A DNA stretch of 64,000 nt from Chloroflexota bacterium. Lineage in GTDB: Bacteria; Chloroflexota; Dehalococcoidia; Bin125. The notes beneath the pieces were generated by a model. The model saw nothing but the letters and a program-made list of their open reading frames with translations. It did no database searches and was not told the origin of the DNA. Location of the stretch: NCBI GenBank assembly GCA_028875225.1, contig JAPPFB010000018.1, positions 101,543 through 165,542 on the forward strand, read 5' to 3'. Shown here piece after piece: positions 19 through 64,000 of the stretch. How positions within the stretch are numbered: position 1 is the stretch's first letter; each line of letters begins with the position of its first letter. A program made the translations under genes and the position numbers.

Positions 19-969
19 ATGCAGCCGCAGCGGGTCGCCGTCGTCGGAGCCGGCGCGGTCGGCTGCTACTTCGGTATGCGCCTCGCCGAGGCCGGACACG
101 ACGTCCGCTTCCTCATGCGACGCGACTACGACGCCGTCACGTCGGGCGGACTGCACCTGACCAGCCACCTCGGCGACCTCTCCCTCGCCGCGCCGACCGT
201 AGAGCGCACGCCCGAAGCGCTCGCCGCGCACGGACCCGTCGACTGGGTCCTGGTCGGACTCAAGGCCACGGCGATTCCCGGCGTCCCGAAGCTGGTCGGA
301 CCACTGCTCTCGGAAGACACCCGCGTCCTCGCGATCATGAACGGACTCAGCGTCGACGAAGAGATCGCCGCCGAACTCCCCGCTGGCACGTCGTTATTCG
401 GCGGGCTCGGATTCATTGGCGTGATTCGCGGCGAGCCGGGCCGCATCCTGCACCAGGAGTTCGGCGCGATCAACCTCGGACATCACGGCGACGACCCCGA
501 CGAGCTGCAGCGCGGCGTCAACCTGTTCGACGGCAGCAAGGTCGAGATCCGCCCCGAAGCCAGCCTGCTCAAGGCGCGCTGGGAGAAGCTCTGTTGGAAC
601 ATCCCCTTCAACGGCCTCTGCGTGATCGCCGGCGGCGTCCCCGTCGACCAGGTGATCGAGGACCCGCCCCTCTACGACGCCGCCCACGAGCTGATCAAGG
701 AAATCGTCGCCGCCGGCAACGCCGACCTCGAGGCCCACGGCCAATCCGCCCGCATCGACGGCCCCCGCATCGCCCACCTCTTCCTCACCCAGACCCTCGG
801 CATGGGAGCCTACCGCCCCAGCACCGTCATCGACTACAACAACGGCCGCCCCCTCGAACTAGACGCCATCTTCCGCCAACCCGTCCAGAGAGCCAGCGAA
901 CTGGGAGTAGGAGTGCCAATGATGTCGATGGTGGCGTCGTTGGTCGGGAAGTTGGGGGATCGGGAGTGA
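19..969 (+). CDS. panE: 2-dehydropantoate 2-reductase (ApbA/PanE family)
   Basis: 316-aa ORF. N-terminal Rossmann motif VAVVGAGAVGCYFG. C-terminal KARWEKLCWNIPFNGL region and length are typical of ketopantoate reductases. Confidence 0.8.
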   Translation: MQPQRVAVVGAGAVGCYFGMRLAEAGHDVRFLMRRDYDAVTSGGLHLTSHLGDLSLAAPTVERTPEALAAHGPVDWVLVGLKATAIPGVPKLVGPLLSEDTRVLAIMNGLSVDEEIAAELPAGTSLFGGLGFIGVIRGEPGRILHQEFGAINLGHHGDDPDELQRGVNLFDGSKVEIRPEASLLKARWEKLCWNIPFNGLCVIAGGVPVDQVIEDPPLYDAAHELIKEIVAAGNADLEAHGQSARIDGPRIAHLFLTQTLGMGAYRPSTVIDYNNGRPLELDAIFRQPVQRASELGVGVPMMSMVASLVGKLGDRE

Positions 970-3900
970 GTGAGCTCCGTCAGGTCGTGAAGCAATATCT
1001 CGACGCCATCTCGGCCGTCAGCCGCGTCGGGACGCCTGAGCTCTCCCACTACACCGCGCTCGACAACCTCTTCGACGCCGTCGGCGGGCAATTGACTCCG
1101 AAGGTCCGCGCCGTCGTCCACTACAGCGAGACCAACCCGGGGCAGCCCGACCTCGGGTTCTTCTCCGGCGACAACACCGACCCCGACCGCGGCGTGGTCG
1201 AGGTCAAGGGCGCGGACGCCGATCTCGAAGAGACCATCGCCTCCGAACAGGTCGACCAGTACTGGCAGGCGCGCAAGCTCGTGCTCGTGACCAACCTGCG
1301 CGAGTTCGCGCTGGTCGGACAGGACAACAACGGCGCGAAAGCGACGCTCGAGCGCTACTCGCTCGCCGACTCCGTTCCCCAATTCGACGAACTGCTGGAA
1401 CACACGACTCGCGAATCCAACCGGCACGGCGTCTCGCTGGGCGAGTACCTGCTACGCACAATGTCGCACCGTTCGACCATCTCCGAGCCACGCGACCTCG
1501 CCCGGCTGCTCGCCTCCTACGCCCGCGACGCGCTGCAGCGGGTCGAGCAGGCGGCCGAGGAAGAAGATTCGCTGGCCACGATCCGCAAGGCGATCGAACA
1601 GGCGCTGGGCATGTCGTTCGAGAGCGAAGACGGCGGGCGGTTCTTCCGCTCGACATTGGTGCAGACGCTGTTCTACGGCGTCTTCGCCGCCTGGGTGCTG
1701 TGGGCGCGGGCGGGCAAGACGGGCAGCTTCGGCTGGAAGGACACCGTCTACGAGCTGCGCGCGCCGGTGCTGCGCATGCTCTTCCACCAAATCACCGACC
1801 CCGGGCGGCTGGAGCGGCTGGGACTGGACGAAGTGCTGGACTGGACCGAGGCCGCGCTGGAGCGTGTCGACCGCGAGGCCTTCCTCACCAGCTTCTCTGA
1901 GGGCGAGGCGGTGCAGTACTTCTACGAGCCGTTCCTCGAAGCCTTCGATCCCGACCTGCGCAAGCAGCTCGGTGTCTGGTACACGCCGCGCGAGATCGTC
2001 CGCTACATGGTCGCCCGCGTCGACCGCGCCCTGCGCGATGACCTGGGCATTCCGAAAGGGCTGGCCGACGAGCGCGTCTACGTGCTCGATCCCTGCTGCG
2101 GGACGGGCGCGTTCCTGGTCGAGACGCTGCGCCGGATCGCCGCGACCGAGCAGGCCTCGGGCGGCGCGACCTGGGCCGAGTCGGTCCGCCAGGCCGCCGC
2201 GACGCGCGTCTTCGGCTTCGAGATCATGCCCGCCCCGCTGGTCGTCTCGCACCTGGAGATTGGCCTCGCGCTGGAGCGCCTGGGCGCCGGACTCTCGCCC
2301 GACCAGCGCGCCGGCGTCTTCCTGACCAACGCCCTCACCGGCTGGGAGCCGCACACGACCAAGCCGCTGCCCTTCCCCGAGCTGGAACAGGAACGCCGCA
2401 GCGCCAACCAGGTCAAGCAGCAGCGCCCGATCCTCGTCGTGCTCGGCAACCCGCCCTACAACGGCTTCCCCGGCGTGCCCGACGCGGAAGAGGAGCGGAA
2501 GCTGTCGGACGCCTACCGTCAGGTCTCTGGACCCGATGTGCCCAAGCCGCAGGGCCAAGGACTCAACGACCTCTACGTGCGCTTCTTCCGCATGGCCGAG
2601 CGCCGCATCGCCGAGAAGACCGGCAAGGGCGTCGTCTGCTTCATCAGCAACTACTCCTGGCTCGACGGCCTCTCCTTCCCCGGCATGAGACAGCGCTATC
2701 TAGACGCCTTCGACACGGTGAGGATCGACAATCTGCATGGGGATCGGATCATCTCGGAGTACGCACCCGATGGCCGAACGAGTGAGACGGTGTTTGCGAT
2801 TAAAGGGAAGTCACCGGGGATTCGGATCGGCACGGCAATCACAATGCTCACAAAGGCGGTTGGGGCCAAGGATGGCGAAGTGATGTACCGAGACTTCGAT
2901 CAAGCGAAGGCCGAAGAGCGAAGGAGTGCATTGGTCTTGAGCCTCGACGCCACCAGTCTCGACTCAGAGTATCGGCCGCTAGCACCACACCCCAAGCTGG
3001 GACTGCCGTTCAAGCCAACCGCAGTTAGCGAGGACTGGTTTGAGTGGCCCTCGCTTGTTGAGCTGTTTCCTACGGAGATACCAGGCGTCAAGACCAATCG
3101 CGACTCGTTTCTAGTAGACATTGATCGCGAGCGGTTGGTAACGAGGATCTCCGACTACTTCAATCCCGCTTTGACTCACGAACAGATCCGAGAGCGATGG
3201 CCCGTCGCTATGAGACAGACGACTTCCGTTCCTCTACCACCGAATACGGTGCGCAACATCCGTCTGGAGCGCGGCGTCAATCCAGATGGAATCGTTCCCT
3301 ATGCGTGGAGGCCCTTCGACGTGCGGTGGATCTACTGGGAGTCTGAGATCGGCCTCGTAGCGCGTCCGAGTCCGCACTTCAAACGACACGCGTTCGAGGC
3401 AAACATGTGGATCGAGGCGCGAGAGCGGGAGCCGCAACCAGTGTTTCAGCGTGGCACTCTCGTGCGGATCCTCGCCGACAACTTCGGCAATGGACTGTCG
3501 AACTTCTTCCCTCTCTACTTACGGGATGACCAGTTCGGCGAAGTAGTGGACGGCGTCAAGCGGGTTCTAAACCTAAGCGACGACGCCTCGTCCTACATCA
3601 AATCAATGGGTGTAAGACCGGAAGATCTCTTCTTTCACGCGCTGGCTACTCTGCACAACCCAAGCTACCGAGCCGAGAATGCCGACCCGTTACGGCTGGG
3701 CTGGCCTCGCATCCCCCTGCCAAAAGACCCTTCCGAGCTCGCCCTATCCGCCGCCCGAGGCCAACGCCTCGCCCGCCTGCTCGACACCGAATCCGACGTC
3801 GCCGACCTCCTCACCGACCACATCCACATCGCCGTCCCCACCACGGTCGACGGCAACCCCATGCAACCCGCCGACTTCCACCTCACCGCCGGCTGGGGCC

Positions 3901-4166
3901 ACTTCGGAGCCGACCAAGCCGTCATGCCCGGCCAGGGCAAAGTCGAGCGCCGTGGAGACAGGGTCGACGTCTACCTCAACGACAACGCCTACTGGCGAGA
4001 CATCCCCCTTACCGTCTGGAACTACCGTTTAGGCGGCTACCAGGTCCTCAAGAAGTGGCTGAGCTACCGAGAATCAAAGGTGTTGGGCCGGGCGCTCGAA
4101 GTGGGAGAGGTGTCGTGGTTCTCGGAAGTCGCACGGCGAATCGCAGTGATCCTGGAAACTCACTGA
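966..4166 (+). CDS. Fused endonuclease/N6-adenine DNA methyltransferase (type IIG/IIL or ISP-like restriction-modification enzyme without helicase domain)
   Basis: Same frame as track ORF 594..4166, but 594-965 is an Arg/Pro-rich out-of-frame overlap of panE. GTG at 966 overlaps the panE stop as GTGA and starts VSELRQVV. PD (1146-1151) ... EVK (1200-1208) is a PD-ExK-like nuclease motif. SAM motif I is VLDPCCGTGAFLVE (about 2081-2122) and motif IV is LGNPPY (about 2441-2458). The C-terminus WNYRLGGYQVLKKWLSYRE resembles the type ISP/IIG C-terminal domain. Confidence 0.75.
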   Translation: MSELRQVVKQYLDAISAVSRVGTPELSHYTALDNLFDAVGGQLTPKVRAVVHYSETNPGQPDLGFFSGDNTDPDRGVVEVKGADADLEETIASEQVDQYWQARKLVLVTNLREFALVGQDNNGAKATLERYSLADSVPQFDELLEHTTRESNRHGVSLGEYLLRTMSHRSTISEPRDLARLLASYARDALQRVEQAAEEEDSLATIRKAIEQALGMSFESEDGGRFFRSTLVQTLFYGVFAAWVLWARAGKTGSFGWKDTVYELRAPVLRMLFHQITDPGRLERLGLDEVLDWTEAALERVDREAFLTSFSEGEAVQYFYEPFLEAFDPDLRKQLGVWYTPREIVRYMVARVDRALRDDLGIPKGLADERVYVLDPCCGTGAFLVETLRRIAATEQASGGATWAESVRQAAATRVFGFEIMPAPLVVSHLEIGLALERLGAGLSPDQRAGVFLTNALTGWEPHTTKPLPFPELEQERRSANQVKQQRPILVVLGNPPYNGFPGVPDAEEERKLSDAYRQVSGPDVPKPQGQGLNDLYVRFFRMAERRIAEKTGKGVVCFISNYSWLDGLSFPGMRQRYLDAFDTVRIDNLHGDRIISEYAPDGRTSETVFAIKGKSPGIRIGTAITMLTKAVGAKDGEVMYRDFDQAKAEERRSALVLSLDATSLDSEYRPLAPHPKLGLPFKPTAVSEDWFEWPSLVELFPTEIPGVKTNRDSFLVDIDRERLVTRISDYFNPALTHEQIRERWPVAMRQTTSVPLPPNTVRNIRLERGVNPDGIVPYAWRPFDVRWIYWESEIGLVARPSPHFKRHAFEANMWIEAREREPQPVFQRGTLVRILADNFGNGLSNFFPLYLRDDQFGEVVDGVKRVLNLSDDASSYIKSMGVRPEDLFFHALATLHNPSYRAENADPLRLGWPRIPLPKDPSELALSAARGQRLARLLDTESDVADLLTDHIHIAVPTTVDGNPMQPADFHLTAGWGHFGADQAVMPGQGKVERRGDRVDVYLNDNAYWRDIPLTVWNYRLGGYQVLKKWLSYRESKVLGRALEVGEVSWFSEVARRIAVILETH

Positions 4167-4175
4167 CCCGCAGTC

Positions 4176-4460
4176 TCAAGCCGCCCGCTCGATCCGCTTG
4201 ATATCGCAGGCCGTCTTGCGGGCCTGGGCCAGGTCATATGCATTCTGCATTCTGAGCCACGCGTCGGCCGTGCTCCCGAATGCCATCTCAAAGCGAATCG
4301 CCATGTCGGCGGTGATCGGCGCGCGGCGCTCGCAAATGGCGGAGAGTGCCCCCTCTTCGACCTGCAAATGCTCGGCAGCTTCACCTACCGTCAGGTTCAA
4401 GGCTTCGATGCAGTCCCGAAGGACAATGCGGCCCGGATGGGAAGGACTCTTCATCGGCAT
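4176..4460 (-). CDS. higA: HigA-type antitoxin (XRE-family HTH antidote protein)
   Basis: 94 aa. HTH core LNLTVGEAAEHLQVEEGALSAICERRAPITADMAIRFEMAFGSTADAWLRMQ. Lies 12 nt downstream of the toxin ORF. Confidence 0.85.
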   Translation of the reverse strand: MPMKSPSHPGRIVLRDCIEALNLTVGEAAEHLQVEEGALSAICERRAPITADMAIRFEMAFGSTADAWLRMQNAYDLAQARKTACDIKRIERAA

Positions 4461-4472
4461 CAGTTTGCCTTC

Positions 4473-4751
4473 CTAGTGGTAATCGAGGAAGTCGACATCG
4501 GTCACATCGGCGCCTTCGAATCGAAAGACTATCCGTTCATTGGCAGAGACTGAAATCGACCAGAATCCACGGTACTCACCTCGCAGTGAGTGCAGGCGCC
4601 AGCCGGGAACATCCACGTCCTTTGGGTCAGCGGCGATGTCAAGGAGAGCGAGCATGTCTGTGATCTTATCCACATGCTGAGGCGGCAGGTAGCGCCCGTC
4701 GTTCTGCTCGTGTAGCCTGCGCAGCCCTCGATGGCGGATCCGGAGAATCAC
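4473..4751 (-). CDS. higB: HigB-type toxin (RelE/ParE superfamily, plasmid-maintenance killer)
   Basis: 92 aa with a GTG start. Carries RIRHRGLRRL and WRLHSLRGEYRGFWSISVSANERIVFRFE patterns. Toxin-first order is typical of higBA. Confidence 0.85.
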   Translation of the reverse strand: MILRIRHRGLRRLHEQNDGRYLPPQHVDKITDMLALLDIAADPKDVDVPGWRLHSLRGEYRGFWSISVSANERIVFRFEGADVTDVDFLDYH

Positions 4752-4879
4752 TGAATGAGCCTACTCCAAACCCCAGTCGAACTCGCCACACTCTCCAACC
4801 CGCCGACCTTCAACAGAACACACGTCCGCATACAATGGCCGACGCTGAACACTCAACACCGAGCCCACCGAGCGAGCCA

Positions 4880-5060
4880 TGAAACCCCAATCCAAACTCA
4901 CCGCCTCTGACACAAACCCGCACTTCCCTGTCATGACGCAGAAAAGCACGCACGAAACTGAGCCAGAACTATCCAAATCTGGACAGATCTGGACAAATCT
5001 GGACTTTTCCGGACGCCAAATCGCACCATTCCCAGTCCACAGCACCAGATCCGACAATTC
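4880..5060 (-). repeat. Leader-like repeat, copy A, with three 10-bp-phased iterons (4975-5004, AAATCTGGAC/AGATCTGGAC/AAATCTGGAC on + strand)
   Basis: The reverse complement aligns by hand with 63825-64000: cggatYtgStgctStggactgggaat...gtccggRaRagtccagRtttgtccagatYtgtcca. Both copies end at an ATG about 90-100 nt past the iterons. Confidence 0.65.
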
Positions 5061-5063
5061 CGC

Positions 5064-5579
5064 TCAGAATTCCCTCGCCAGGCCCAGCGCCGCGCACCAT
5101 TCCTCGATCGCCGCCGACCTCGATGCCTCGGTGTTCCAGTGCAGCGGACGCGGGCTGGTGCTCGGCAGCGCGATGAGGTTCGCCTCCAGGTCGGGGAACG
5201 CCCGGCGGAACTCTCGCAGCCGGCGACCGTTCAGGAGGATTGGAAACGGTCCCCGCGACTCCAACAGCTCCCCGACCCGGTTCGGCACGGCGTCGCGGAT
5301 CTTGTCGTCTCCCGACCCCTCTCGACGCACCCGCTCATACAGATCCCAGATCGCGAGGCCTCCCGCACGCACCTGCTCCACCCGCTCCGCGTACGGCGCC
5401 CCTGCATCTTCCACCACGCCGCAGTGCGCCATCACGCGCCAGAACCAGTTCTGGGGATGTGCGTAGTATTGCTGCCGCTCCAGCGACTGCACGCTGGGGA
5501 ACGAGCCGAGGATCAGGGCGCGGGTGGGGCCGTCGGGGAGGATTGGCGGGAGGCCGTGGAGCTGGTCGTCGGGAGGCAT
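5064..5579 (-). CDS. DNA-deoxyinosine (hypoxanthine) glycosylase-like, UDG superfamily
   Basis: 171 aa. Motifs LILGSFPSVQS, QYYAHPQNWFWR and LPSTSPR match my recollection of family-6 UDG / hypoxanthine-DNA glycosylases. Confidence 0.65.
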   Translation of the reverse strand: MPPDDQLHGLPPILPDGPTRALILGSFPSVQSLERQQYYAHPQNWFWRVMAHCGVVEDAGAPYAERVEQVRAGGLAIWDLYERVRREGSGDDKIRDAVPNRVGELLESRGPFPILLNGRRLREFRRAFPDLEANLIALPSTSPRPLHWNTEASRSAAIEEWCAALGLAREF

Positions 5580-5582
5580 GGC

Positions 5583-5705
5583 GGGAGCCCCCCTCTGCCT
5601 TCGGCATCTCCCCCCGCGAAGCGGGGGGAGAGGGGAAGTGGACTTGTGACATCTCCCTCTGAGCAGGGGAGAGGGGAACTGGTCCCCGCGTGAAGCGGGG
5701 ACTGG
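5583..5705 (-). repeat. GC-rich structured intergenic repeat cluster (R1 core in reverse orientation plus gtccccgcNNNNgcggggac hairpin)
   Basis: The reverse complement of 5583-5640 aligns with 22310-22390 and 22893-22947. Hairpins are ctccccccgc-gaa-gcggggggag (5608-5630) and gtccccgcgtgaagcggggac (5682-5702). Confidence 0.8.
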
Positions 5706-5708
5706 GAG

Positions 5709-6941
5709 CTACTTCGCGGGGAAGACCGGTTCGCCTCCGATGATGCCGGCGGCTTCCATTTCCTGGAGGTCTCCAGCCGAGAGGCCGAGGTCGTCCGAGA
5801 GGACCTGGGCGGTGTGCTCGCCCAGCAGCGGGGCGCGCTCGATCGGGACGTCGCTCTTCGACATCCTCGGCGCCCAGCCGAGCAGGCGGATCTTGCCGTG
5901 CGCCGGGTGATCGAGGTCGTGGACGAAGCCGCGCTCCTCGAAGTGCGGGTTGTGGAACAGGTCGTAGGTGTCGAGCACCGCCGAGCAGGGCACGCCCTTC
6001 TCGCCGAGGAACTCCATCACCTCCCACTTGGTCTTCGTCCTGGTCCACTGGGCGATTTCGGCGTAGAGTTCCTGGCCGTTCTCGTTGCGCTTCCACATGT
6101 CCTCGAAGCGCGGGTCGACCAGCAGCTCGGGCCGGTCGATCGCCGCGCAGAGCGTGTCCCACATGCGGCTGGTTACGACCATGATGTAGACCCAGTCGTT
6201 GTTGCCGCCGCGTTCCTCGCTCTCCGGCGTCGACTTGCACGGGTAGAGGTCGGTCGGCGCGCCGGCCGCGTTGCCCCGACGCGGCGCGACCTTCTCGCCC
6301 CACTCGGCGTACGCGATCCGTGTGCGCATGAAGTAGGTCATCGCCTCCTGCATCGTGATTTCGATGAACTGGCCCTCGCCCGTTCTCTGGCGTTGGACGT
6401 AGGCCGCCGTGATCGCCAGCGCGAGTTCCGTCCCGGTGCCCGAGTCGCCGACGGTCGAGCCGGGCAGCATCGGCGGACCGTCGGCCTCGCCGGTGACCGA
6501 GAATGCGCCGGCCGCGGCCTGGGCGATCATGTCGAAGCACTTGTAGTCGGCCCACGGCCCGGACAGACCGAAGCCCTTGAGCCGCGCGTAGATGATCGCC
6601 GGGTTGATCTCCTTCATCACGTCATACGTGAGGTTCAACCGCTCCATCACGCCGGGGCCGTAGTTCTCGACGAACACGTCGTAGTGGGGCAGCATGTCCA
6701 GTAGCAGGTCGCGGCCCTTGGGGTCCTGCAGGTTGATCGTGACCGAGCGCTTGTTGGAGTTCCAGTTGATGAAGTAGGGAGAGTTGAGCGTGCCCGTGCG
6801 CACGCCTCGGCCCGGGTCGCCGACGCCGGGCTGCTCGATCTTGACCACATCCGCCCCCAGCCAGGCCAGCGCCTGCGTGCACGAGGTCCCCGCCTCGTAC
6901 TGGGTCATATCCAGGATCCGCATTCCATCAAGAGCCGGCAT
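5709..6941 (-). CDS. Family III CoA-transferase (CaiB/BaiF/Frc-like)
   Basis: MPALDGMRILDMTQYEAGTSCTQALAWLGADVVKIEQPG N-terminus and GDSGTG catalytic-Asp region. ATG 6941 is preceded by GGAGGA. The track ORF extends to 6959. Confidence 0.85.
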   Translation of the reverse strand: MPALDGMRILDMTQYEAGTSCTQALAWLGADVVKIEQPGVGDPGRGVRTGTLNSPYFINWNSNKRSVTINLQDPKGRDLLLDMLPHYDVFVENYGPGVMERLNLTYDVMKEINPAIIYARLKGFGLSGPWADYKCFDMIAQAAAGAFSVTGEADGPPMLPGSTVGDSGTGTELALAITAAYVQRQRTGEGQFIEITMQEAMTYFMRTRIAYAEWGEKVAPRRGNAAGAPTDLYPCKSTPESEERGGNNDWVYIMVVTSRMWDTLCAAIDRPELLVDPRFEDMWKRNENGQELYAEIAQWTRTKTKWEVMEFLGEKGVPCSAVLDTYDLFHNPHFEERGFVHDLDHPAHGKIRLLGWAPRMSKSDVPIERAPLLGEHTAQVLSDDLGLSAGDLQEMEAAGIIGGEPVFPAK

Positions 6942-7033
6942 CGTCAGGTCCTCCGTCACAGGCGCTTAGCCACAGCCAACGCACGCACGCGAAGGGCGCG
7001 CACAGGCACATGATAGCCAGCGACGCTCAGACG

Positions 7034-8326
7034 TTACTCGAAGTACTCCTCGCCAAGCGCGAGGCGAGATTGGATGCGCTGTAAGGCCGCCATCGCTTCA
7101 GACGGGCTCCTCTGGACTGTCTGCTCATCGAACACGAACGGTGTCGCCGCCAGGATCAGCGGCTGTCGAATGAACGCTGCGTCGCTCGTGTAGGTATGCA
7201 CCATGCTCAACGCCGCGGTGATCAGATATCCCTGTGCTTCAGCGCCCGCGTTGATGAAGAACTCCCAGTGAGTTTCGCGGATGTCGTAGGAGAGCATCTG
7301 CACGCTGATGTTGGAACCGATGCTGGCAACCTTGACGATGACATCCAGTTCATCCTTTGTCTCGGCGATACTCTGCAGCGCACTCACCAGTGTGTCTCCG
7401 TTGAGCGCCAACATCGCCTCCAGGGGCGCCTGTTCCGTGTCGAGCAACCGCGCGCTGATTGTGGGTCTCACCGCTTCGGCATCTGCTCCGGCTGGCAAGG
7501 GGAGCCGTTCGACCTCACCTCCCGTATACGTCGCCTCGAGCTGGTCACAGCGTGTTTCCAGTCCAACGTTGACCGTCTCGTGAAGCAGACACGCGATCCT
7601 GCCGCTGAACCCGCGACGATTGAACTCCTCGCCCGCCAACCGACCGGCAGCTGCGTCGTCCAATGCGATGTGAAGCTCCGAACCTGCGGACGCCGCGAGC
7701 TCGGGACCAGAATTGAACGTGACGATCCGGGCGCCGGCCTTCTTCGCCGATCGCAGAGCCGGCCCAACCTCGTCGGGAGCCGCCAGCGTCGACGCTATGA
7801 CCGCTGCTCCATGGGCGCTGCATCGCGCGATCTCGTCGGCCTGCTCTTCACCCGTGGTCGAGTGGGTGAAACGAACCTGCATCCCTAAGTCCAGTGCGGC
7901 CTGTCGTGAGAACCCCCGCAACAGACGCCAAAAGAAGTCGGAGCGAGCTCCATGCGCGGCGATGCAGAAGAGCGGGCCGCCCGCGGCGCTTGGCCCTTCG
8001 AGCAGGATTGGCGAGCTGTTCAGCCAGACGCCGGTTGGAGCAGTGGCGGGGACCGTGTTCAGATCGGGATGCTGACGCTCACCCCAGGAGCCGCCGGCCC
8101 CCTGCTGTTGCAGGGCAACGCGGATGCTTCCCGACTCCGACGTGAGCGCGGAAATGCGGACGGTCGCGCCGTCGGACTCCTGTTCCGCCGTCGCGTCGTG
8201 GAAGAGCGAGTGGCTAATGAACACCGTTAAGGCAATTGCCAGTCCAAGAGCCAATAGAACAGGCAGTCGCTGACGTATCGACTTCACGAGGCTCCGCTGA
8301 AACAGGTACATGCCGGTTCTCTGCAA
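7034..8326 (-). CDS. Membrane-anchored periplasmic-binding-protein fold protein (type I sugar-binding-like) with unassigned N-terminal module
   Basis: One N-terminal TM segment (LPVLLALGLAIALTVFI), then the module at 8000-8167. PBP1 sugar-binding-like pattern follows (FCIAAHG..DFFWR, GAAVIASTL, GARIVTFNSG, LHIALDD..AGRLAGEEF, AEAQGYLITAAL). The track start is TTG 8326; ATG 8311 is an alternative. Confidence 0.75.
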   Translation of the reverse strand: MQRTGMYLFQRSLVKSIRQRLPVLLALGLAIALTVFISHSLFHDATAEQESDGATVRISALTSESGSIRVALQQQGAGGSWGERQHPDLNTVPATAPTGVWLNSSPILLEGPSAAGGPLFCIAAHGARSDFFWRLLRGFSRQAALDLGMQVRFTHSTTGEEQADEIARCSAHGAAVIASTLAAPDEVGPALRSAKKAGARIVTFNSGPELAASAGSELHIALDDAAAGRLAGEEFNRRGFSGRIACLLHETVNVGLETRCDQLEATYTGGEVERLPLPAGADAEAVRPTISARLLDTEQAPLEAMLALNGDTLVSALQSIAETKDELDVIVKVASIGSNISVQMLSYDIRETHWEFFINAGAEAQGYLITAALSMVHTYTSDAAFIRQPLILAATPFVFDEQTVQRSPSEAMAALQRIQSRLALGEEYFE

Positions 8327-8600
8327 TCATCTATCCAGGAGTGATTCATCAAAGACCAGGTTCAATGATGCGATCGGATTTTACACATCGCTGAGAGTCA
8401 TGCGCATTCCCGCCGCAAGCGAAGCCGATCAGCTCTTACATAAACACTCGCTGCATCTGGGTCACGACTCATTCACTGGGGGCGATCGCCGCCACCCCGG
8501 TCACAATCAGTTCGTGGCCCTGCCGATCATGAGTGGCCAGGCTCAGGGTGAATTTAGAACGTTGCCTACGGCCGATCGGACGGCTAGCGCCCGTCAGCCG

Positions 8601-8906
8601 TTAGCGGCTGCTGGCGATGCCCTCGGCCTCCAGAAGGGCAAATCTTTCGCCTTCGATGTCGAGGTCGTCGCAGAGGACTTCGCGTGTGTGCTCCGCGAGC
8701 AGACAATTCGGTCCAGGCTGTGGATGCTCGAAATCCTGGATGAAGCCGCGCTTTCGAAGTGCCGTTCAACGGTCAATACAGGCCGATCCATCGTCGCGGA
8801 GATCGTGTTCCATATCCGCCCCAAGCCATGCCAGCGCCTGAATGCACGAAGTCCCCGCCTTGTGATCGATCATTTCCGAGACTCCTACTCCATCAAGAGC
8901 CGGCAT
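8601..8906 (-). pseudogene. Internally deleted remnant of a family III CoA-transferase gene
   Basis: Starts MPALDGVGVSEMIDHKAGTSCIQALAWLGAD, then jumps to fragments homologous to mid (RIWNTISATMDRP vs RMWDTFCAAMGRP) and C-terminal parts. The 3' end and downstream spacer match 12180-12330 nearly base for base. Confidence 0.8.
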
Positions 8907-9216
8907 CGTCAAGACCTCCCGCCGCGTGGCGATACTGCCAACCGTGATTGGGACGAGACATTCGTCCGCGGAAGCTTGGGCCACCTGCGTTATCTCGGTC
9001 GCGAGGGACCTGCCGACCGTCCCGAGAGCAGTAAAAGCTCCGGCAGCATTACGGATGGGATCGCCAACCGGACCGGGTTTCAGATTCCGGCGATTGGTTG
9101 ACGCGTAGGAACGCGACCCGCTTTGAGAGCGGCGGGATCCCGCTGTTTTCGGCAAGGCGCGCGCCCGGCAAATGCTTCCAGGGTTGCCAGAGCGCGTGGC
9201 AGACGGCGCGGGACGA

Positions 9217-10515
9217 CTATTCCTCCAGGTACTCGTCACCCAGTGCGAGTCGGGCATCGAGTCTTCGTCCAACCTCAGCTCGCGCCTCCGGTGTGGCGCT
9301 CCTGATCGCGCTGTTGTCGTAGACAAACGGAATTGCGTTCAGGATCAACGGCTGTTGGATCAGTTCGGAGGGGACGACGTTGCTGTAGGCCATGTGCAGG
9401 GCAGCAGTGATGAGATACCCCTGTGCTTCCGGCGCCGCATTGATGGTGAACATGGAGATCCGTCGGAGTCCAGCAAAGCCGACCTGTTGAATGATTGGGG
9501 CGAAGCCGCGAGCAACCCCTATTGTGCCGGTCCTCACTTCGTGATCCAACACGTCCAGCGTATCGACGATTGCCTGCATGGAAGGGAACAGGGCGTCGCC
9601 ATTGAGAGTGAGCAGTCCGTACAGAGTTGGTAGATTCGGATCCGTCAGTCTCTCGGCGATGATTGTTCGAATGGCTTCGAAGTCGGCGCCATCGGGCAAG
9701 TTGATGCGAATCACGTCACCACCCGCATAGACAGAGGCGAACGCATCGCAGCGAGCATCAAGACCGACGTTGTTCTGCTCGTGGACGACGCATCCTACCG
9801 TTCCGGTCATCTCATGTCGGTTGAACTGCCGGGCGGCCAGTCGTCCGGCCTCCACGTCGTCGAGGGCGATATGCAGTTCCGATCCAGCCTTGATCGCATC
9901 TTCATAGCCTGAGTTGAACGTGATGATTCGCGAGCCCGCTGCCTTGGCGGCCAGCAGCGAAGCGGTGACGTCGTCGGGAGCAGCCAGGGTCGCGGCGATG
10001 ACGGCAGCTCCATCGGCACTACAGCGGTCGATCTCGGCGGCCTGAGCGGCGCCGTTGGTCTGTTGGATGAATCGGACATGTAGTTGGTTGTCCAGGGCGG
10101 CCCGCCGGGAGAATCCTCGCAGCATGCGCCAGAAATAGTCATCATTTTGGCCATGGGCGACGATGCAGAAGAATGGACGCTCTGGCGCCTCCAGGGGCGG
10201 CAGTTCCACGGGAGAACTGTTGAGCCAGCGGCCTGACTGGGCTCCAGCGGGAATGACGCGAAGTGCGGGCAGCAGACGTTCTCCCCACTGCCTGCCGTAG
10301 CCCTGCTGTTGCACGGCCACTGAGACGGCGCCATTTGCGTGTCTCTGCGCGGCGACCCGCACAGTGGCGGAGTCTCCGTCGCTGGGCTCCTGATGGTTGG
10401 CCGTCGCGCCACCGTTGAACGCGAGCGTGGCCATTGCTGTCAATAGTGCGGTGGCAACCAGCCCTGCCAGCAGCACCAGTGTCTTGCGGCTTGGACGGAG
10501 GATCAGGTTCATCAT
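9217..10515 (-). CDS. Membrane-anchored PBP-fold protein (paralogue of 7034..8326) with the same N-terminal module
   Basis: 432 aa. SD GGAGGGG lies upstream of ATG 10515. TM segment, module 10201-10368, and the same PBP1-like blocks (FCIVAHGQNDDYFWR, GSRIITFNSG, AQGYLITAAL). Confidence 0.8.
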   Translation of the reverse strand: MMNLILRPSRKTLVLLAGLVATALLTAMATLAFNGGATANHQEPSDGDSATVRVAAQRHANGAVSVAVQQQGYGRQWGERLLPALRVIPAGAQSGRWLNSSPVELPPLEAPERPFFCIVAHGQNDDYFWRMLRGFSRRAALDNQLHVRFIQQTNGAAQAAEIDRCSADGAAVIAATLAAPDDVTASLLAAKAAGSRIITFNSGYEDAIKAGSELHIALDDVEAGRLAARQFNRHEMTGTVGCVVHEQNNVGLDARCDAFASVYAGGDVIRINLPDGADFEAIRTIIAERLTDPNLPTLYGLLTLNGDALFPSMQAIVDTLDVLDHEVRTGTIGVARGFAPIIQQVGFAGLRRISMFTINAAPEAQGYLITAALHMAYSNVVPSELIQQPLILNAIPFVYDNSAIRSATPEARAEVGRRLDARLALGDEYLEE

Positions 10516-10672
10516 GTGGTTCCCCTCCTGGGGTTCAACAGGGATCTGATTGAGCGCTCATTTCGATGTTCGGCGCAGTGCTCCGGCGGAGCGGAGTCGA
10601 TGGCGCTCCGAACAAGGTTTGATGCGTGCCCACTCTCGTGAAGATTCCTTGACGGTCTGGCTGACATGTGCG

Positions 10673-11971
10673 TTAGTCGACGTACTCGTCCCCCAGGGCC
10701 AATCGAGCATCGAGTCCGGCTTGAATCTCTGCCAGGCGATCCGGGTTGCCCTGAATCGCTTCAAGGCTGTACACGAACGGAGTCGCGTTCAGGATCAGTG
10801 GCCGCAGAATGAACCGTGCGGTCGTGGTGTAGCTGTACGACATATGCAAGGCAGCGGTGACCAGGTAGCCCTGCACCTCGGCGGCGGCGTCAATGTGGAA
10901 CAGAACATGGCGACGGAAGTCGTCCGCCAAGAGTCCCGGGATGCTGAGATTGACCCCGATACTGCCGACCTTGACATCGCGATCCAGTTCCTCTCTGGCG
11001 GCGATGACGGCCTGCAGGGCGCCCTGAAGCGACGCTGAGCCGCTCAGCGTCAATAGTCCCTCGAGGGCCGGCTCCTCCGGATCTGAGAGCCGTGCCCTGA
11101 TCGTTGCTTCAACTTGATCGGCGCTTGCTCCCTCGTCCAGGTAGATGCGAACCACCTCGCCTCCGGATTAGGCATCGTCGAATGCGTCACAGCGCGTCTC
11201 CAGGCTGACATTGCTTCGCTCGTGGATGACGCAGCCCATGGCGCCGGTGGCCTCGTGCTGATTGAACTCTTCGGCTGCCAGTCTCCCCGCCGCGGCGTCG
11301 TCGAGCGTGATATGCAGTTCTGACCCGGATAGGATCGAGTGCTCGTATCCCGAGTTGAATGTGATGATCCTGGCTCCCGCTTCCTTCGCGGCCACGAGCG
11401 CGGGCGTCACTATTTCATGGGCTACGAGGGTCGCGGCAATGACAGCAGCGCCATCGGCGCTGCAGCGCTCAATCTCCGCAACCTGCTCGGCCCCGCTGGT
11501 TGACTGGGTGAAGCGGACATCCAGGTTGTTGTCCAGAGCTGCCTGGCGTGAGTATCCGCGCAACAGTCGCCAGAAATAGTCGTTGCGGTCGCCATGCGCG
11601 ACGATGCAGAAGAGAGGTCGTTCCTCAGGTTCGCTGAGCTCGGTTTCGACCCCTGAACTGGGTAGCCAGCGCTCCGGCTCGGCATCGACAGGAACAACGC
11701 GGTATCTCGGAAGCAGGCGCTCGCCCCATTCCCCGTTCGCCTGCTGCAGTTGCACGACCACCGAGAGGTTGCCGCTCTCGTGGGGCAGGGCAGAGACGCG
11801 AACGGTCGGAGGGTCTCGGTCATCGTGTTCAGAAGACGCCTGGTCGGAGAACGTGAGGGTGATCACCACGGTCAAGACCGCGGTCGCCACAAATGCCAGT
11901 AAGACACCCAGTCGCCGACGTGTCGGCGTGACGAGGCTCCGCTGAGGCAGGTGCATGCCAGTTCCTCGCAA
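10673..11971 (-). pseudogene. PBP-fold paralogue interrupted by a single in-frame TAA
   Basis: Track ORFs 11168..11971 and 10673..11155 are in the same frame. TAA (11168-11170) sits where the paralogues have Tyr (DDA*SGGEV vs ASVYAGGDV / EATYTGGEV). Confidence 0.8.
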
Positions 11972-12246
11972 TCATCTACCCATGAGGGATTCATCAAAAT
12001 CGAATGCTCAATGATGTGGTCGGATTTTACACTTTGCTCATGGATATGTGCATTGCCCTCGCGAAACGGGAATGGTCGGGCTTACATAAATGATCGCTGC
12101 ATGTGGGCAGTTGCTCCGAGCCGGAGCGGCCTTGTTGACCAAGGTGTCCCCATGGACAAGCGGCACGATAGACCGAACCGGGCCAGGCTCCGCGTGAAGT
12201 TGGGACGTTGTCTGCGGCCGTTCGGGCGACTCGCGCCCGTCAGCCG

Positions 12247-13458
12247 TTAGCGGCTGCTGACGATGCCCTCGGCCTCCAGCCGCGCAAATTCTTCGCCCTC
12301 GATGCCGAGGTCGTCGCAGAGGACCTCTCGCGTGTGCTCCGCCAACAGCGGGGCGGCCGTCATCGGCACGTTGCTCTTCGACATCTTGGGCGCCCAGCCA
12401 AGCAGGCGGATCGGACCCCACTCGGGGTGGTCGATGTCCTGGATGAACTCGCGCTCGTCAAAGTGCGGGTTGTGGAAGAGGTCATAGGTGCTGTGCGTGG
12501 CTGAGCAGGGGACGCCGGCCTCGCCCAGGATCTGCATCGCCTCCCACTTGTCGTGCTGGATGGTCCAGGCGCGGATCTCGGCCTTGAGCTCGTCGTTGTT
12601 GTCGATCCGCGCCTGCTCGTCGGCGAATCGCGGGTCGACGACCATGTCGGGCCGACCCATCGCCGCGCAGAAGGTGTCCCACATGCGGGTCGTCAGGGCG
12701 ATGATGTAGAGGTAATCGTCCGCCCCGTTTGAATCGGGCAGCGGCTTGCAGGGGTACAGGTCGGTCGGGCCGTTCCAGCCGTTGCCCCGACGCTCGGCGG
12801 CGACGTCGCCCCAGCTCTGGGTGCCGGCGACCGGCGTGCGGACGTAGTAGGTCATCGCCTCCTGCATCGAAATCTCGATGTGCTGACCCTCGCCGGTGCG
12901 CAGCTTTTGTACGTACGCCGAGGTAATCGCGAAGGCCAATTGCATCCCGGTGCCGCTGTCGCCGACGCAGGCGCCGGGCCGCATCGGCGGACCGCCCTCT
13001 TCACCGGTCACCGAGAACGCGCCGGCCGCGTTCTGGGCGACAGGATCGAAGCTCTTGAAGTTCGCGAATGGCCCGGAGAGACCGAACCCCTTGAGTCGCG
13101 CGTAGATGATGCTCGGGTGGACTTCCTTGAGCGCCTCGTAGGTCAGGCCCAGCTTCTCCATTACGCCGGGGCCGTAGTTCTCGACGAAGACGTCGTAGTG
13201 GGGCAGCATCTCGAAGAGCAGCGCCTTGCCTCGCTCGTCGCGCAGGTTGATTGTGACCGAGCGCTTGTTGGCGTTCCAGTTGATGAAATAGTGCGAATCA
13301 ATCGCGTCGCCGCTGCCCACGCCGCGGCCGGGATCGCCGACGCCGGGCTGCTCGATCTTGACCACGTCGGCGCCGTGCCAGGCCAGCGCCTGGGTGCACG
13401 AGGTGCCCGCCTCATACTGAGTCATGTCGAGGACGCGGAGTCCGTCGAGAGCTGGCAT
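12247..13458 (-). CDS. Family III CoA-transferase
   Basis: MPALDGLRVLDMTQYEAGTSCTQALAWHGADVVKIEQPG. ATG 13458 is preceded by GGAAGGA. The upstream part of track ORF 12247..13578 has no paralogue support. Confidence 0.85.
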   Translation of the reverse strand: MPALDGLRVLDMTQYEAGTSCTQALAWHGADVVKIEQPGVGDPGRGVGSGDAIDSHYFINWNANKRSVTINLRDERGKALLFEMLPHYDVFVENYGPGVMEKLGLTYEALKEVHPSIIYARLKGFGLSGPFANFKSFDPVAQNAAGAFSVTGEEGGPPMRPGACVGDSGTGMQLAFAITSAYVQKLRTGEGQHIEISMQEAMTYYVRTPVAGTQSWGDVAAERRGNGWNGPTDLYPCKPLPDSNGADDYLYIIALTTRMWDTFCAAMGRPDMVVDPRFADEQARIDNNDELKAEIRAWTIQHDKWEAMQILGEAGVPCSATHSTYDLFHNPHFDEREFIQDIDHPEWGPIRLLGWAPKMSKSNVPMTAAPLLAEHTREVLCDDLGIEGEEFARLEAEGIVSSR

Positions 13459-13591
13459 CGTGGTGTCCTTCCGAGGGTGCGGGGTCATGCGAATCCTCAC
13501 CATCATAGGGAAGGCCTGAGAATGTCTGCTCAGGCTCACAGACCCCAATGGATGCTTGACTGTGCGGTGAGCTTGCAAGCGATCCAGTTTG

Positions 13592-13692
13592 CTCCCCCTG
13601 CAAGGGGAGCTCCCGCGAAGCGGGTGAGGGGACCCGGAAGCTGCGAAGGTACCCCTCCGTCGCTTCGCAACACCTCCCCTTGCAGCGGGAGG
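13592..13692. repeat. GC-rich multi-hairpin intergenic repeat (R3)
   Basis: Hairpins ctcccc-ctgcaa-ggggag, ctcccgc-gaa-gcggg and gcgaag...cttcgc, in the same style as the other intergenic hairpin clusters. Confidence 0.6.
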
Positions 13693-13724
13693 AAATCACG
13701 TCCTGCGGAAGGTTCAGATGTAAT

Positions 13725-14948
13725 TCAGTCGCCGCTGAGGTGAGCGGCGACAACGCCATCCGCCTGGAGTCTTGTCAACTCCTCAGCCTCGATCTCAAGG
13801 TCGTCACAGAGCACCTGGGCGGTGTGCTGCCCAAGCAGCGGCGCAGCCGTCATTGCCACGGTTGACCCGGAGAGTCGCGGCGCCCAGCCGAGCTGTCGAA
13901 TCTCGCCCCACTCAGGATGATCAAGATGCTGGATGAAGCCGCGTGATTCGAAGTGCGGATTGTGGAAGAGGTCGTAGGTATCGTGCGTGGCCGAGCAGGG
14001 CACGCCGGCCCCGGCGAGGATCTCCTGGGCCTCCCACTTGGTGTGTTGCCTCGTCCAGTTGCGAATCTCGTCCTTGAGCGCTTCCTGATGTTCAACCCTG
14101 CCCGCGTCTTCGACGAATCGCGGATCGACGGTCAGTTCCGGTCGGTCCATTGCCGAACACAGCGTGTCCCACATCCGGGATGTCGTGAGGATGATGTACA
14201 CGTAGTCATTCGATCCGTCCGAGTCCGGCAGCGGTTTGCATGGATACAGGTCGGAGGCGCTGAAACCGAAGCCGTTACCGTTGCGCGGCACGACGCTGTC
14301 GCCCCAGCCCTCCGTCTGCGAAACGTAGGTGCGCATGTAGTAGGTCATCGCCTCCTGCATCGAGATCTCGATCTCCTGACCCTCGCCGGTGCGCAGCCGC
14401 TGGATGTATGCCGCGGCAATCGCGAACGCCATCTGCATACCCGTGCCCGAGTCGCCGACAGCCGCCTTCGGCATGGTCGGCGGGCCGTCGGCGAAGCCGG
14501 TGGTTGAGAACGCGCCGGCAGCGTTCTGGGCGATTGGATCAAAGCACTTGAACTCCGCGTATGGACCCGACAGTCCGAATCCCTTGATCCGCGCGTAAAT
14601 GATGCTCGGTTGAACCGACTTCAGCACGTCGTAGGTCAACCCCAGCCGCTCCATCACGCCGGGACCATAGTTCTCGACGAACACGTCATAATGCGACGCC
14701 ATTTCGAGCAGGAGTTCTCGTCCGCGCTCTGAACTCAGATCGATCGCCACGGATCGCTTGTTGGAATTCCAGGCAATGAAGTAAGGCGAATCGAGCCCGT
14801 CCTCGCGGACCCCGCGGCCGGGATCGCCCTGGCCCGGCTGCTCGATCTTGACCACGTCCGCGCCCAGCCAGGCCAGCGCCTGGGTGCAGGATGTGCCGGC
14901 TTCGTACTGGGTCATGTCGAGAATTCTCAGTCCGTCGAGGGCTGGCAT
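13725..14948 (-). CDS. Family III CoA-transferase
   Basis: 407 aa beginning MPALDGLRILDMTQYEAGTSCTQALAWLGADVVKIEQPG, with a GDSGTG block. Confidence 0.85.
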   Translation of the reverse strand: MPALDGLRILDMTQYEAGTSCTQALAWLGADVVKIEQPGQGDPGRGVREDGLDSPYFIAWNSNKRSVAIDLSSERGRELLLEMASHYDVFVENYGPGVMERLGLTYDVLKSVQPSIIYARIKGFGLSGPYAEFKCFDPIAQNAAGAFSTTGFADGPPTMPKAAVGDSGTGMQMAFAIAAAYIQRLRTGEGQEIEISMQEAMTYYMRTYVSQTEGWGDSVVPRNGNGFGFSASDLYPCKPLPDSDGSNDYVYIILTTSRMWDTLCSAMDRPELTVDPRFVEDAGRVEHQEALKDEIRNWTRQHTKWEAQEILAGAGVPCSATHDTYDLFHNPHFESRGFIQHLDHPEWGEIRQLGWAPRLSGSTVAMTAAPLLGQHTAQVLCDDLEIEAEELTRLQADGVVAAHLSGD

Positions 14949-15092
14949 GGCGATGTTCCTTCCCCTGGAAGTCGGCTGATGCCGGCACGATAGCCGTTCT
15001 CAATGCCGATTCCCGTACCGACAGTCATGCTCCGGCCAGGCACCTCGTACCATGCCTCTCAAGCCACCAGAGCGAGGGATGGAGTCGAGATC

Positions 15093-22892: not shown

Positions 22893-22947
22893 CCCTCTCC
22901 CCTCGCGAAGCGGGGGGAGATGCCAAAGGCAGAGGGGGGCTTCTGCC
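22893..22947 (+). repeat. R1 structured repeat, third copy
   Basis: cttccctctcccctcgcgaagcggggggagatgccaaaggcagaggggggcttc. Same orientation as the copy at 22310-22390. Confidence 0.8.
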
Positions 22948-22970
22948 CAGCGTCCTGAATTGGGCTGATC

Positions 22971-56606: not shown

Positions 56607-56698
56607 CGCCCCGTTCCTTTCAAGCGGGGTCAGTCTATCGGCAGGGCGTCCCGTCATTTCGATAGCCTTGGCGCAGCCCGGAATGGACAGGATTTCTC

Positions 56699-58039: not shown

Positions 58040-58084
58040 GCCAGTCCTTGTCGTACCATTTGATCAAGACAAAGGGGAGATCTC

Positions 58085-59413: not shown

Positions 59414-59484
59414 ATTCACTTCGGCGGCGCGAACAGGTATCTTCATGATGATCTCTACGCGTGAGATCGCCATGGAGGGTCCTG

Positions 59485-63804: not shown

Positions 63805-63824
63805 GCGTCGCGGGGAGATTCGGG

Positions 63825-64000
63825 ATCGGTTCGCCGGATTTGCTGCTCTGGACTGGGAATTCTGCCGAAAGCCGTCCGGGAGAGTCCAGGTTTGTCCAGA
63901 TTTGTCCATAACAGTCCAGGATTGATGAGTGCGGTTCCTGCTGGTTGCCGAGGGATCCAGGTGAGTCCGGGTGGGGGATTGGCTGGTGTCGAGATTCATG
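63825..64000 (+). repeat. Leader-like repeat, copy B, with four 10-bp-phased iterons (63885-63924)
   Basis: gtccaggttt/gtccagattt/gtccataaca/gtccaggatt. Aligns with the reverse complement of 4880-5060. Ends at ATG 63998-64000 at the window edge. Confidence 0.65.

Follow-up and report, generated by a model that had tools for sequence, protein, structure and literature searches.

Miniature inverted-repeat transposable elements (MITEs), such as Correia/NEMIS of Neisseria and Nezha of cyanobacteria, are short, gene-less, intergenic copies that share their ends with a gene-bearing unit, the parent insertion sequence (IS); their presence varies between close relatives, and some copies carry outward promoters. 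In REPIN-RAYT systems, lineage-specific dispersed repeats are tied to one cognate gene that itself carries repeats, and the BOX elements of Streptococcus pneumoniae show a modular A-(B)n-C structure with a variable number of middle units. The sites of the DNA-binding proteins ParB (parS) and Noc (NBS) are scattered on the chromosome, one of them lying in or at the protein's own gene (parS in spo0J), and the small DNA-binding proteins ParR and TubR assemble side by side on the short direct repeats of parC and tubC, respectively. Here, we analyzed a 64,000-nt stretch from a Chloroflexota bacterium of the class Dehalococcoidia (assembly GCA_028875225.1, contig JAPPFB010000018.1; C8:101543-165542 in our numbering, hereafter the window). 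The window holds two copies of a non-coding cassette built around 10-bp direct repeats (iterons). They belong to a family of about 38 copies in this genome, and the family is paired with the gene of a stand-alone helix-turn-helix (HTH) protein whose 3′ tail carries the same repeats. By analogy, the cassettes and the HTH gene appear to work most like a MITE/parent or REPIN-RAYT pair, and they also resemble the ParB-parS, Noc-NBS and parC-type arrays.

The traits named above for MITEs, REPIN-RAYT systems and BOX elements recur in the cassettes, but each likeness has its limits. Unlike MITEs, the cassettes have neither terminal inverted repeats nor target-site duplications, their core being one-sided 10-bp direct repeats, and the parent gene encodes an HTH protein only, with no transposase or catalytic domain. 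Unlike REPINs, they lack hairpins and palindromes, and their partner is an HTH protein rather than a Y1 transposase; in comparison with BOX, their units measure 10 bp rather than 45 bp. In contrast to ParB, Noc, ParR and TubR, the HTH protein has no detected ParB, ribbon-helix-helix or TubR domain, its gene is multi-copy and patchy in the genus, and the sites travel in cassettes that include a promoter and a start codon. We could not find any earlier description of dispersed gene-less cassettes paired with the tail of an HTH gene; no paper with the two-unit motif was found in the published literature, and a topical search gave nothing relevant.

The preliminary description of the window reported an inverted pair of phased repeats 59 kb apart, and this pair is real. 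A repeat search of the window returned inverted arms of 111 nt at 4980-5090 and 63798-63908, which are 72% complementary; in the core, 4974-5004 against 63894-63924, complementarity rises to 84%. The motif GTCCAGRTYTGTCCA occurs without mismatch four times, as two overlapping matches per copy (4980 and 4990 on the minus strand, 63884 and 63894 on the plus strand), and at up to two mismatches it has six matches in the window against 0.27 expected, a number attained by none of 100 shuffles. The unit-to-unit spacing is exactly 10 bp in both copies. The ATG previously placed 90-100 nt from each array is likewise present at both copies, as a CATG about 95-100 nt past the array (ATG at 4879-4881 on the plus strand and 63997-63999 on the minus strand), and is conserved in the family; nevertheless, the Shine-Dalgarno (SD)-like motif, the -10 box and the ATG are all read on the strand opposite to the one assumed. 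Other parts of that description need to be revised. The copies do not face each other across the window but lie back to back, with their GAATTC modules inward and their tails outward, and neither is the leader of the gene it was thought to point to, since both sit right after the stop codon of a convergent gene. Nor do they form a special pair bracketing the window: the genome has about 38 copies, these two included, or roughly one every 85 kb, so that a distance of 59 kb between two of them calls for no particular explanation.

Based on a three-unit pattern allowing up to three mismatches, we obtained 64 matches in the genome under study (G000; 3.22 Mb, 29 contigs, 96% complete) against none in its reversed control, which collapse to about 35 arrays, and an iterated nhmmer profile recovered 38 copies with a 244-nt consensus; the genome-wide search for the iteron core that had been proposed thus did yield further copies. 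The cassettes are 90-330 nt long and non-coding, and they occur in full, medium and minimal truncated forms, the iterons being the one part retained by all of them. On the C/A-rich strand, the order is GAAC-N4-GTCC, GCA, TAnnAT, an SD-like motif, ATG, degenerate CCGGA units in a C/A-rich stretch, iterons and module. Near-perfect iterons comprise three to six copies of AAATCTGGAC, followed by the module ending in GAATTCCC; the repeats of this genome can also be written as AATCTGGACA. The arrays contain a median of four contiguous units, with further same-sense motifs at 31 and 41 nt, and a distance of exactly 10 nt separates 104 of 189 successive TYCRG motifs (55%; 1% in shuffles). When the copies are anchored on the first iteron, the first two units have an information content of 1.7-1.9 bits per column, which drops to 0.3-0.7 bits per column in the flanks, that is, the module of about 75 nt and the degenerate tail. 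About 35 arrays whose flanks have diverged to approximately 60-70% identity still share eight or nine of the ten iteron positions.

Among the 20 copies aligned through the terminal block, 18 carry a TAnnAT hexamer (TACAAT, TACGAT, TACCAT, TAAGAT, TATCAT, TAGAAT or TATGAT), in which T1, A2, A5 and T6 are constant and variation falls on positions 3-4, and 16 carry the ATG. The distance from the -10 box to the ATG is 31-43 nt, mostly 42, and a GGAG/GAGG-type motif is found in about 12 copies. A scan with the strict -35 sigma-70 consensus found no promoter in the left window copy, the -10-only pattern being visible only in the family alignment. The open reading frames (ORFs) behind the ATG are 54-117 aa long, of low complexity and without a conserved peptide. 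A small-protein gene at this position was rejected on the grounds that the substitutions between left-locus orthologues are spread evenly by codon position (10/7/5, 9/9/4, 7/8/10 and 14/17/20); these orthologous copies also tolerate indels of 10 nt and 1 nt. For annotation, the lesson is that the cassettes mimic promoters, leaders and small ORFs, and they should not be called genes or riboswitches.

Nearly all copies in G000 are intergenic under our own codon-usage gene model, which assigns 88% of the genome as coding and is the source of all gene calls given here. In 30 of 37 cases (81%; binomial p=0.004 against 0.575 expected), the gene that lies past the GAATTC module is oriented the same way as the C/A-rich strand, and in co-directional gaps the two orientations are found 15 versus 3 times (p=0.0075). 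A replichore-oriented motif was rejected, since copies on closed chromosomes point both ways. No protein gene other than the HTH gene was found to recur beside the cassettes, either in G000 or across 69 loci. One short-form cassette occupies a 298-nt gap between an OmpR-family regulator gene (C28:50492-51271) and a sensor-kinase gene (C28:48826-50193), which are normally adjacent.

The array pattern is confined to one genus: it was present in 13 of the 24 congeners first sampled, the number of matches per congener genome ranging from 0 to about 53, whereas 16 genomes from other families of the class had none. Public records with the array are sponge-associated Chloroflexota/Dehalococcoidia metagenome-assembled genomes (MAGs), e.g., SB0664_bin_20, IRC3_bin_11 and RHO2_bin_60, along with several closed chromosomes. 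Viral contigs and JGI metagenome contigs gave no array matches, leaving a phage or plasmid origin unsupported, and the copies did not prove to be the ends of a known IS or prophage, an explanation that the preliminary description had considered. An exact three-unit array was also seen in a MAG labelled Ferruginibacter sp. (Bacteroidota; L025, JBDUEK010000031.1), where a binning contaminant or a transfer is possible.

The HTH gene was found by clustering all ORFs that flank arrays, as a family entering the array from upstream; ORFs running downstream of the array formed no cluster when a long downstream ORF was required. In G000, the intact gene at C2:299288-300025 encodes a stand-alone HTH protein of 245 aa, and a copy at C16:275188-276007 is frameshifted in a C-run. 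The 3′ tail of the gene is encoded by degenerate repeats, with two iterons (...ATC CAG ACA AAT CTG GAC AAA TCC GGA...) and a GAATTC module, and its promoter-leader reads GCATACCAT-ACAC-AGAACATATGTACC...GAAAGG...ATG. The N-terminus of the protein, PPTPRRCRRILEAHHLDCQGLS..IA..L.CARSTVYAYFRDF..., is strongly conserved. Pfam matches are sub-threshold only (HTH_23, sigma-70 region 4, GerE and Terminase_5, E=0.18), domain scans detected no catalytic domain, weak matches were to a phage "HTH DNA binding protein", and no solved relative was found by sequence. An AlphaFold2 model based on a 45-sequence alignment, with a mean predicted local distance difference test (pLDDT) of 76 and about 90 for most of residues 1-150, predicts a three-helix HTH at residues 7-49, followed by a pair of long helices at 51-71 and 77-113 and by a small Cys-rich knob at 118-153; residues 160-245 form a disordered tail.

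The predicted architecture, an N-terminal HTH followed by long helices, and the approximately 10-bp phased repeats near or inside the gene are reminiscent of small terminases and their pac sites (SPP1/SF6 G1P, Sf6 gp1). A small terminase (TerS) fold is nevertheless not established for this family: Sf6 gp1 appears only at rank 23-27 with E of about 1 and a template modelling (TM) score of 0.37, which is not significant, and there are no large terminase or phage genes nearby and no viral-contig match. No conserved neighbour of the HTH gene, and no large terminase, was found in 30 loci. The gene unit is multi-copy in G051, G020 and G024, in varied contexts; G051 holds at least eight copies, each with iterons about 100-300 nt past the core match. 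A collection of 5.8 billion proteins contained 51 homologues, of which all those with a source name come from Chloroflexota MAGs, and no homologue was found at E≤1e-5 in 300 other genomes sampled across the phylum.

Several observations connect this gene with the cassettes. All 32 cassettes that matched the HTH master unit share its 3′ segment, within master nt 576-795. At the other end, similarity of the promoter-leader to the promoters of the gene family is clear for C2:22493 (z=8.7, with 60 nt aligned between a point before the -10 box and the ATG inclusive) and C28:355 (z=5.7) and modest for the window copies (z=3.7 and 3.0 for the left one, 3.5 for the right one); a search for a master copy sharing only the promoter-leader gave no convincing new matches. 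An origin of the cassettes by internal deletion is thus well supported by sequence comparison at the 3′ end and only partly at the 5′ end. Among 35 congeners, gene and arrays occur together in 19, both are missing in 14, arrays without the gene are found in none and the gene without arrays in two (Fisher p=5e-8, counting genomes as independent and ignoring kinship). The two gene-only genomes, G008 and G017, have no match to the strict pattern, yet BLAST revealed relic or variant arrays in them, including three copies of GTCAGATTTG with a perfect TATAAT. A forward prediction made from this association for ten genomes as yet unscanned for arrays held in all ten.

Additionally, the type of iteron varies together with the HTH subfamily. 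Paralogues P1-P3, with the recognition helix STVYAY, have CYGGAC tails. The distant paralogues P6 and P7 (35-40% identity; STVHAD and STVHSY) carry 10 and 25 CCGAAC motifs with 9 and 28 phased pairs, respectively, whereas CYGGAC is missing from P6 and occurs three times in P7; P4 and P5 (STAAQY) have a third tail type. In G000, arrays of three CCGAAC (i.e., GTTCGG) motifs at 10-nt spacing number 18, of which 16 are intergenic, and those of three CYGGAC motifs number 22, of which 21 are intergenic, against none in the reversed control in either case. Examples of the CCGAAC arrays are located at C27:229753, C24:83315, C8:84590 and C17:177677 and match the tails of P6 (C27:229920) and P7 (C24:82849). 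The P7 tail, from C24:82849 onward, consists of several tandem repeats of about 46 aa rich in CCGAAC units, in an ORF of approximately 576 aa. Three aberrant cassettes in the profile alignment carry GTTCGG-type or GTACGG-type units. The stretch encoded by the iterons hardly varies among the 45 aligned proteins, yet its reading frame differs between members (PIQTNLDKSG versus GQIWTNPD), a sign that the DNA and not the peptide is constrained. The number of iterons is also higher in the cassettes, three to six, than in the genes, two.

The promoters of the gene family share a further motif with the DNA-damage genes of the same organism. lexA (C17:234959-235744) is preceded at 62 nt by a perfect GAAC-N4-GTTC box, AGAACGGCCGTTCC, and an imuB-like polymerase gene (C20:17105-18628) by another at 18 nt; these two boxes define the SOS box of this uncultured lineage. 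GAAC-N4-GTTC is the Gram-positive/Dehalococcoides type of LexA box. All the paralogue promoters carry a GAAC-N4-GTxC box, which in P5 is a perfect palindrome, AGAACACATGTTCC; with one mismatch, the second half-site is GTAC in the master gene, GTCC in the window copies and usually GTCC in the cassettes. Since the paralogue promoters share this box with the organism's own lexA and imuB-like gene, control of the HTH gene family by LexA is plausible.

Empty sites in congeners were identified at five loci. The left window locus is empty in G048, G006 and G043, where the stop codon of a glycosylase gene overlaps the higB start, and carries an insert of 323 nt in G000. Upstream of leuA, the insert measures about 330 nt, and a native TATACT promoter is present in both the filled and the empty states; the inserts upstream of iscS and murT measure about 175 and 250 nt, respectively. 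Between sdhA and sdhB, the net insert is about 47 nt, essentially four iterons. This minimal form (C26:37546-37633), four iterons plus about 25 nt inside the operon, is missing in G021 and G009. No target-site duplication is visible at the five filled/empty loci, where the insertions are old and any duplication may have eroded, and the insert ends defined by these comparisons show no terminal inverted repeats. Orthologous cassettes have been kept across about ten species, and the number of units differs between orthologues (two versus three).

Based on these comparisons, we consider it somewhat probable that the cassettes are gene-less derivatives of the HTH unit, that the HTH protein binds the 10-bp repeats with one protomer per helical turn, and that occupancy gates read-through into the neighbouring gene. 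The cassettes would have arisen from the HTH gene unit by loss of its coding middle and would have been inserted or retained in intergenic DNA. The near-perfect GTCCAGATYT units, one per helical turn, would then be the sites where the HTH protein docks in a side-by-side assembly. The array of a full-length cassette lies 100-150 nt downstream of a putative -10-type promoter aimed at the neighbour gene (in about 80% of cases), and the bound protein could act as a block or an operator between promoter and gene; occupancy would gate read-through because of this intermediate position. What looked like an oddity of one locus becomes a defined, testable protein-repeat system: a small HTH family with two or three matched codes in one genome, offering dozens of natural filled and empty sites. 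If binding were confirmed, this would be a rare bacterial case of sites dispersed as cassettes from a regulator's own gene.

A number of observations weigh against this reading. Co-occurrence and co-variation of gene and arrays are also expected from shared descent or from dead gene fragments. Replication slippage could keep the arrays homogeneous, as the threefold GTCAGATTTG, a variant specific to one array of G008, illustrates. Most cassettes show weak homology to the gene in the promoter-leader, where BLAST finds no 5′ match. Foldseek returned no significant relative of the HTH protein, the best Protein Data Bank match being a TetR-type regulator at E=0.4 and the best BFVD match an unnamed entry at E=7e-3. 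Nothing was seen that would account for dispersal, be it a target-site duplication, a terminal inverted repeat, a recombinase nearby or a catalytic domain. Both window copies are in the minority orientation, the left one abutting the stop codon of a gene of the uracil-DNA glycosylase (UDG) family and the right one that of a protease gene; the downstream genes, as read from sequence, have no common theme (LeuA, ArgRS, SdhB, IscS, MurT, CaiB and others); and leuA still has a promoter of its own past the insert. Since shared descent alone yields co-occurrence and co-variation, the case for binding rests on the conservation of the iterons relative to their flanks, on their amplification (three to six versus two) and on their exact phasing, from which we infer it.

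Slippage and descent are the basis of an alternative that we regard as rather unlikely, namely that the cassettes are non-functional relics of a once-spreading HTH unit, kept uniform in the manner of a microsatellite, and that nothing binds them. The truncated medium and minimal forms beside the full one, the two versus three units of orthologues, the G008 array with its own variant unit, the unconstrained ORF and a gene co-occurrence that follows from common descent would all be expected of relics. Relics would not, however, be expected to keep eight or nine of ten iteron positions in some 35 independent arrays with flanks of 60-70% identity, nor to retain the T-A-n-n-A-T with its variable middle, the SD-like motif and the ATG in diverged copies, and the orientation bias (30/37) and the retention of orthologous cassettes across about ten species also argue against decay. 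A selfish mobile element seems to us quite unlikely. In that case, the HTH protein would be the DNA-recognition subunit that directs a separately encoded recombinase or transposase to the arrays, and the cassettes would be non-autonomous, MITE-like passengers that regulate nothing. The presence/absence polymorphism at five loci, the range of 0 to about 53 copies between congeners, the multi-copy gene unit of G051, G020 and G024 in different contexts and the resemblance of the HTH to the N-terminal families of transposases and resolvases (HTH_23, HTH_38 and HTH_7) are consistent with mobility, as is the SOS-type box, which is common in mobile elements. Nevertheless, the cassettes have only one array-bearing end, with neither terminal inverted repeats nor target-site duplications; no conserved neighbouring enzyme or catalytic domain was detected; the paralogous copies are old (about 70% identity) and the orthologous ones stable across species; and the viral and JGI metagenome contigs hold no matches.

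An element acting at the RNA level appears very improbable. Its C-rich, G-poor, unstructured transcript could be a Rho-loading or attenuator leader on which translation from the ATG prevents termination, or else a sponge for a protein that recognizes GGA motifs. This would fit a -10 box, SD-like motif and ATG that are conserved while the peptide is not, iterons that are open in all three frames, a sense strand that runs the same way as the following gene 81% of the time and the presence of Rho, as well as the lack of a consensus fold on both strands (alifold -0.4 and -2.4, mean z about -0.8). Rfam covariance models, however, gave no family match, only a chance mir-1290 match at E=7, and a CsrB/RsmZ-type sponge was rejected since CsrA (PF02599) is absent from G000, with positive controls. 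Moreover, rut function needs no near-invariant 10-mer at an exact 10-nt spacing, many copies are without the promoter and ATG part, and leuA retains its own promoter beyond the insert.

The preliminary description also compared the layout to an operator and to plasmid iterons. The look of a phased docking array stands and is strengthened by a cognate HTH gene with the same array, but there is no thematic regulon and the downstream genes are unrelated. PHO boxes and OmpR-family operators are head-to-tail direct repeats with a period of 10-11 bp and two to many units per site. The cassette repeats have this period, and one cassette separates the gene of an OmpR-family regulator from that of its kinase; in addition, TTGTCCAGA matches TTGTCCACA, the DnaA box, at eight of nine positions. 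That the arrays are operators of such a conventional global regulator, an OmpR/PhoB-type response regulator or DnaA on a near-box, is nevertheless hardly credible to us. The adjacent genes have no functional theme, the whole unit of 90-330 nt is dispersed and polymorphic rather than the sites alone, and the arrays track an HTH gene that does not encode a response regulator, not the ubiquitous regulators; a DnaA-box cluster was rejected since the dnaA/oriC region uses canonical TTATCCACA boxes along with TCATCCACA and contains no iterons. The comparison with plasmid iterons did not hold. Origins of that type have iterons of 17-22 bp by a rep gene, an AT-rich region and DnaA boxes, whereas the units described here are 10 bp long, in about 38 chromosomal copies, with no Rep gene adjacent.

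Going beyond binding and read-through, a more ambitious and, in our view, doubtful proposal would be that an SOS-controlled HTH family, each subfamily with its own 10-bp code (GTCCAG, GTTCGG and the third type), has had its arrays spread by promoter-bearing cassettes before dozens of unrelated housekeeping genes. If this were true, housekeeping genes would respond to DNA damage or to the level of the HTH protein, and the system would be a bacterial counterpart of a eukaryotic transposon-derived DNA-binding protein acting through the miniature elements that scattered its sites.

Considering the window in detail, the left cassette is a full form that spans 4762-5084, with the C/A-rich sense strand on the plus strand and the order promoter, iterons, module; its limits come from the empty-site alignment with G048, G006 and G043, and the corresponding nhmmer match is C8:106619-106361. 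It carries a GAAC-ACAC-GTCC box (4816-4827, plus strand), a 7/8 match to the organism's SOS box, directly upstream of the -10-like hexamer TACAAT (4831-4836, plus strand), which was located in the family alignment. Next on the same strand (4870-4881) come the SD-like GAGCGAG (4870-4876) and, at 42 nt from the -10 box, the conserved ATG (4879-4881), and a C/A-rich spacer without a conserved fold occupies 4882-4974. The iteron array (4975-5014, plus strand) consists of AAATCTGGAC, AGATCTGGAC, AAATCTGGAC and the degenerate TTTTCCGGAC, which on the minus strand read as GTCCAGATTT and similar units. The distal module (5015-5084, plus strand) includes a GTCCA in the opposite orientation at about 5035-5039 and GAATTCCC at 5067-5074, and it supplies the stop codon (5064-5066, minus strand) of the UDG-family gene. 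This gene of the UDG superfamily of glycosylases (5064-5579, minus strand; 171 aa) has its 3′ end inside the cassette.

The right cassette is read on the minus strand. Its distal module (63812-63873; GGGGAGATTC...CTGGACTGGGAATTC on the plus strand) begins 8 nt after the stop codon (63802-63804) of a 972-aa trypsin-like protease gene (60886-63804, plus strand), which ends just before the cassette. The iteron array (63874-63923), read on the plus strand, is composed of GTCCGGGAGA, GTCCAGGTTT, GTCCAGATTT, GTCCATAACA and GTCCAGGATT and is followed by a degenerate phased tail with the conserved ATG at 63997-63999 (63924-64000). The SD-like motif, the TACAAT and the GAAC-N4-GTCC box of this copy lie about 10-80 nt past the window end, the TACAAT ending at C8:165602.

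On the other side of the left insert, which parts it from the glycosylase gene, lies a toxin-antitoxin pair on the minus strand (4176-4751), composed of higB (4473-4751; HigB, PF05015, E=2e-15) and a HigA-like HTH antitoxin gene (4176-4460). In cassette-free congeners, the higB start overlaps the glycosylase stop, so the three genes look like one operon split by the insert. Next to them, on the plus strand, a gene at 966-4166 encodes a 1066-aa Type ISP-like restriction-modification protein (Type_ISP_C, E=4e-44; N6_Mtase; weak MmeI_Mtase), and its position beside the toxin-antitoxin pair suggests a small defence cluster.

A longer master copy hidden at contig ends was considered and rejected, as these ends are explained by a separate BoxC-like repeat (GGGTTAGGGTGAGG with a hairpin). 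Many contig ends, that of C8 among them, are due to this repeat rather than to the iteron cassette; it is found in the window at 5569-5634 and 22893-22958 and again at C8:165643-165723, just past the window end. The window also holds two tandem gene families. On the minus strand, 5709-14961 is occupied by CaiB/BaiF-type CoA-transferase-like paralogues, assigned by reading the sequences, and on the plus strand, 56690-60807 holds a second family of three copies at a spacing of about 1.4 kb.

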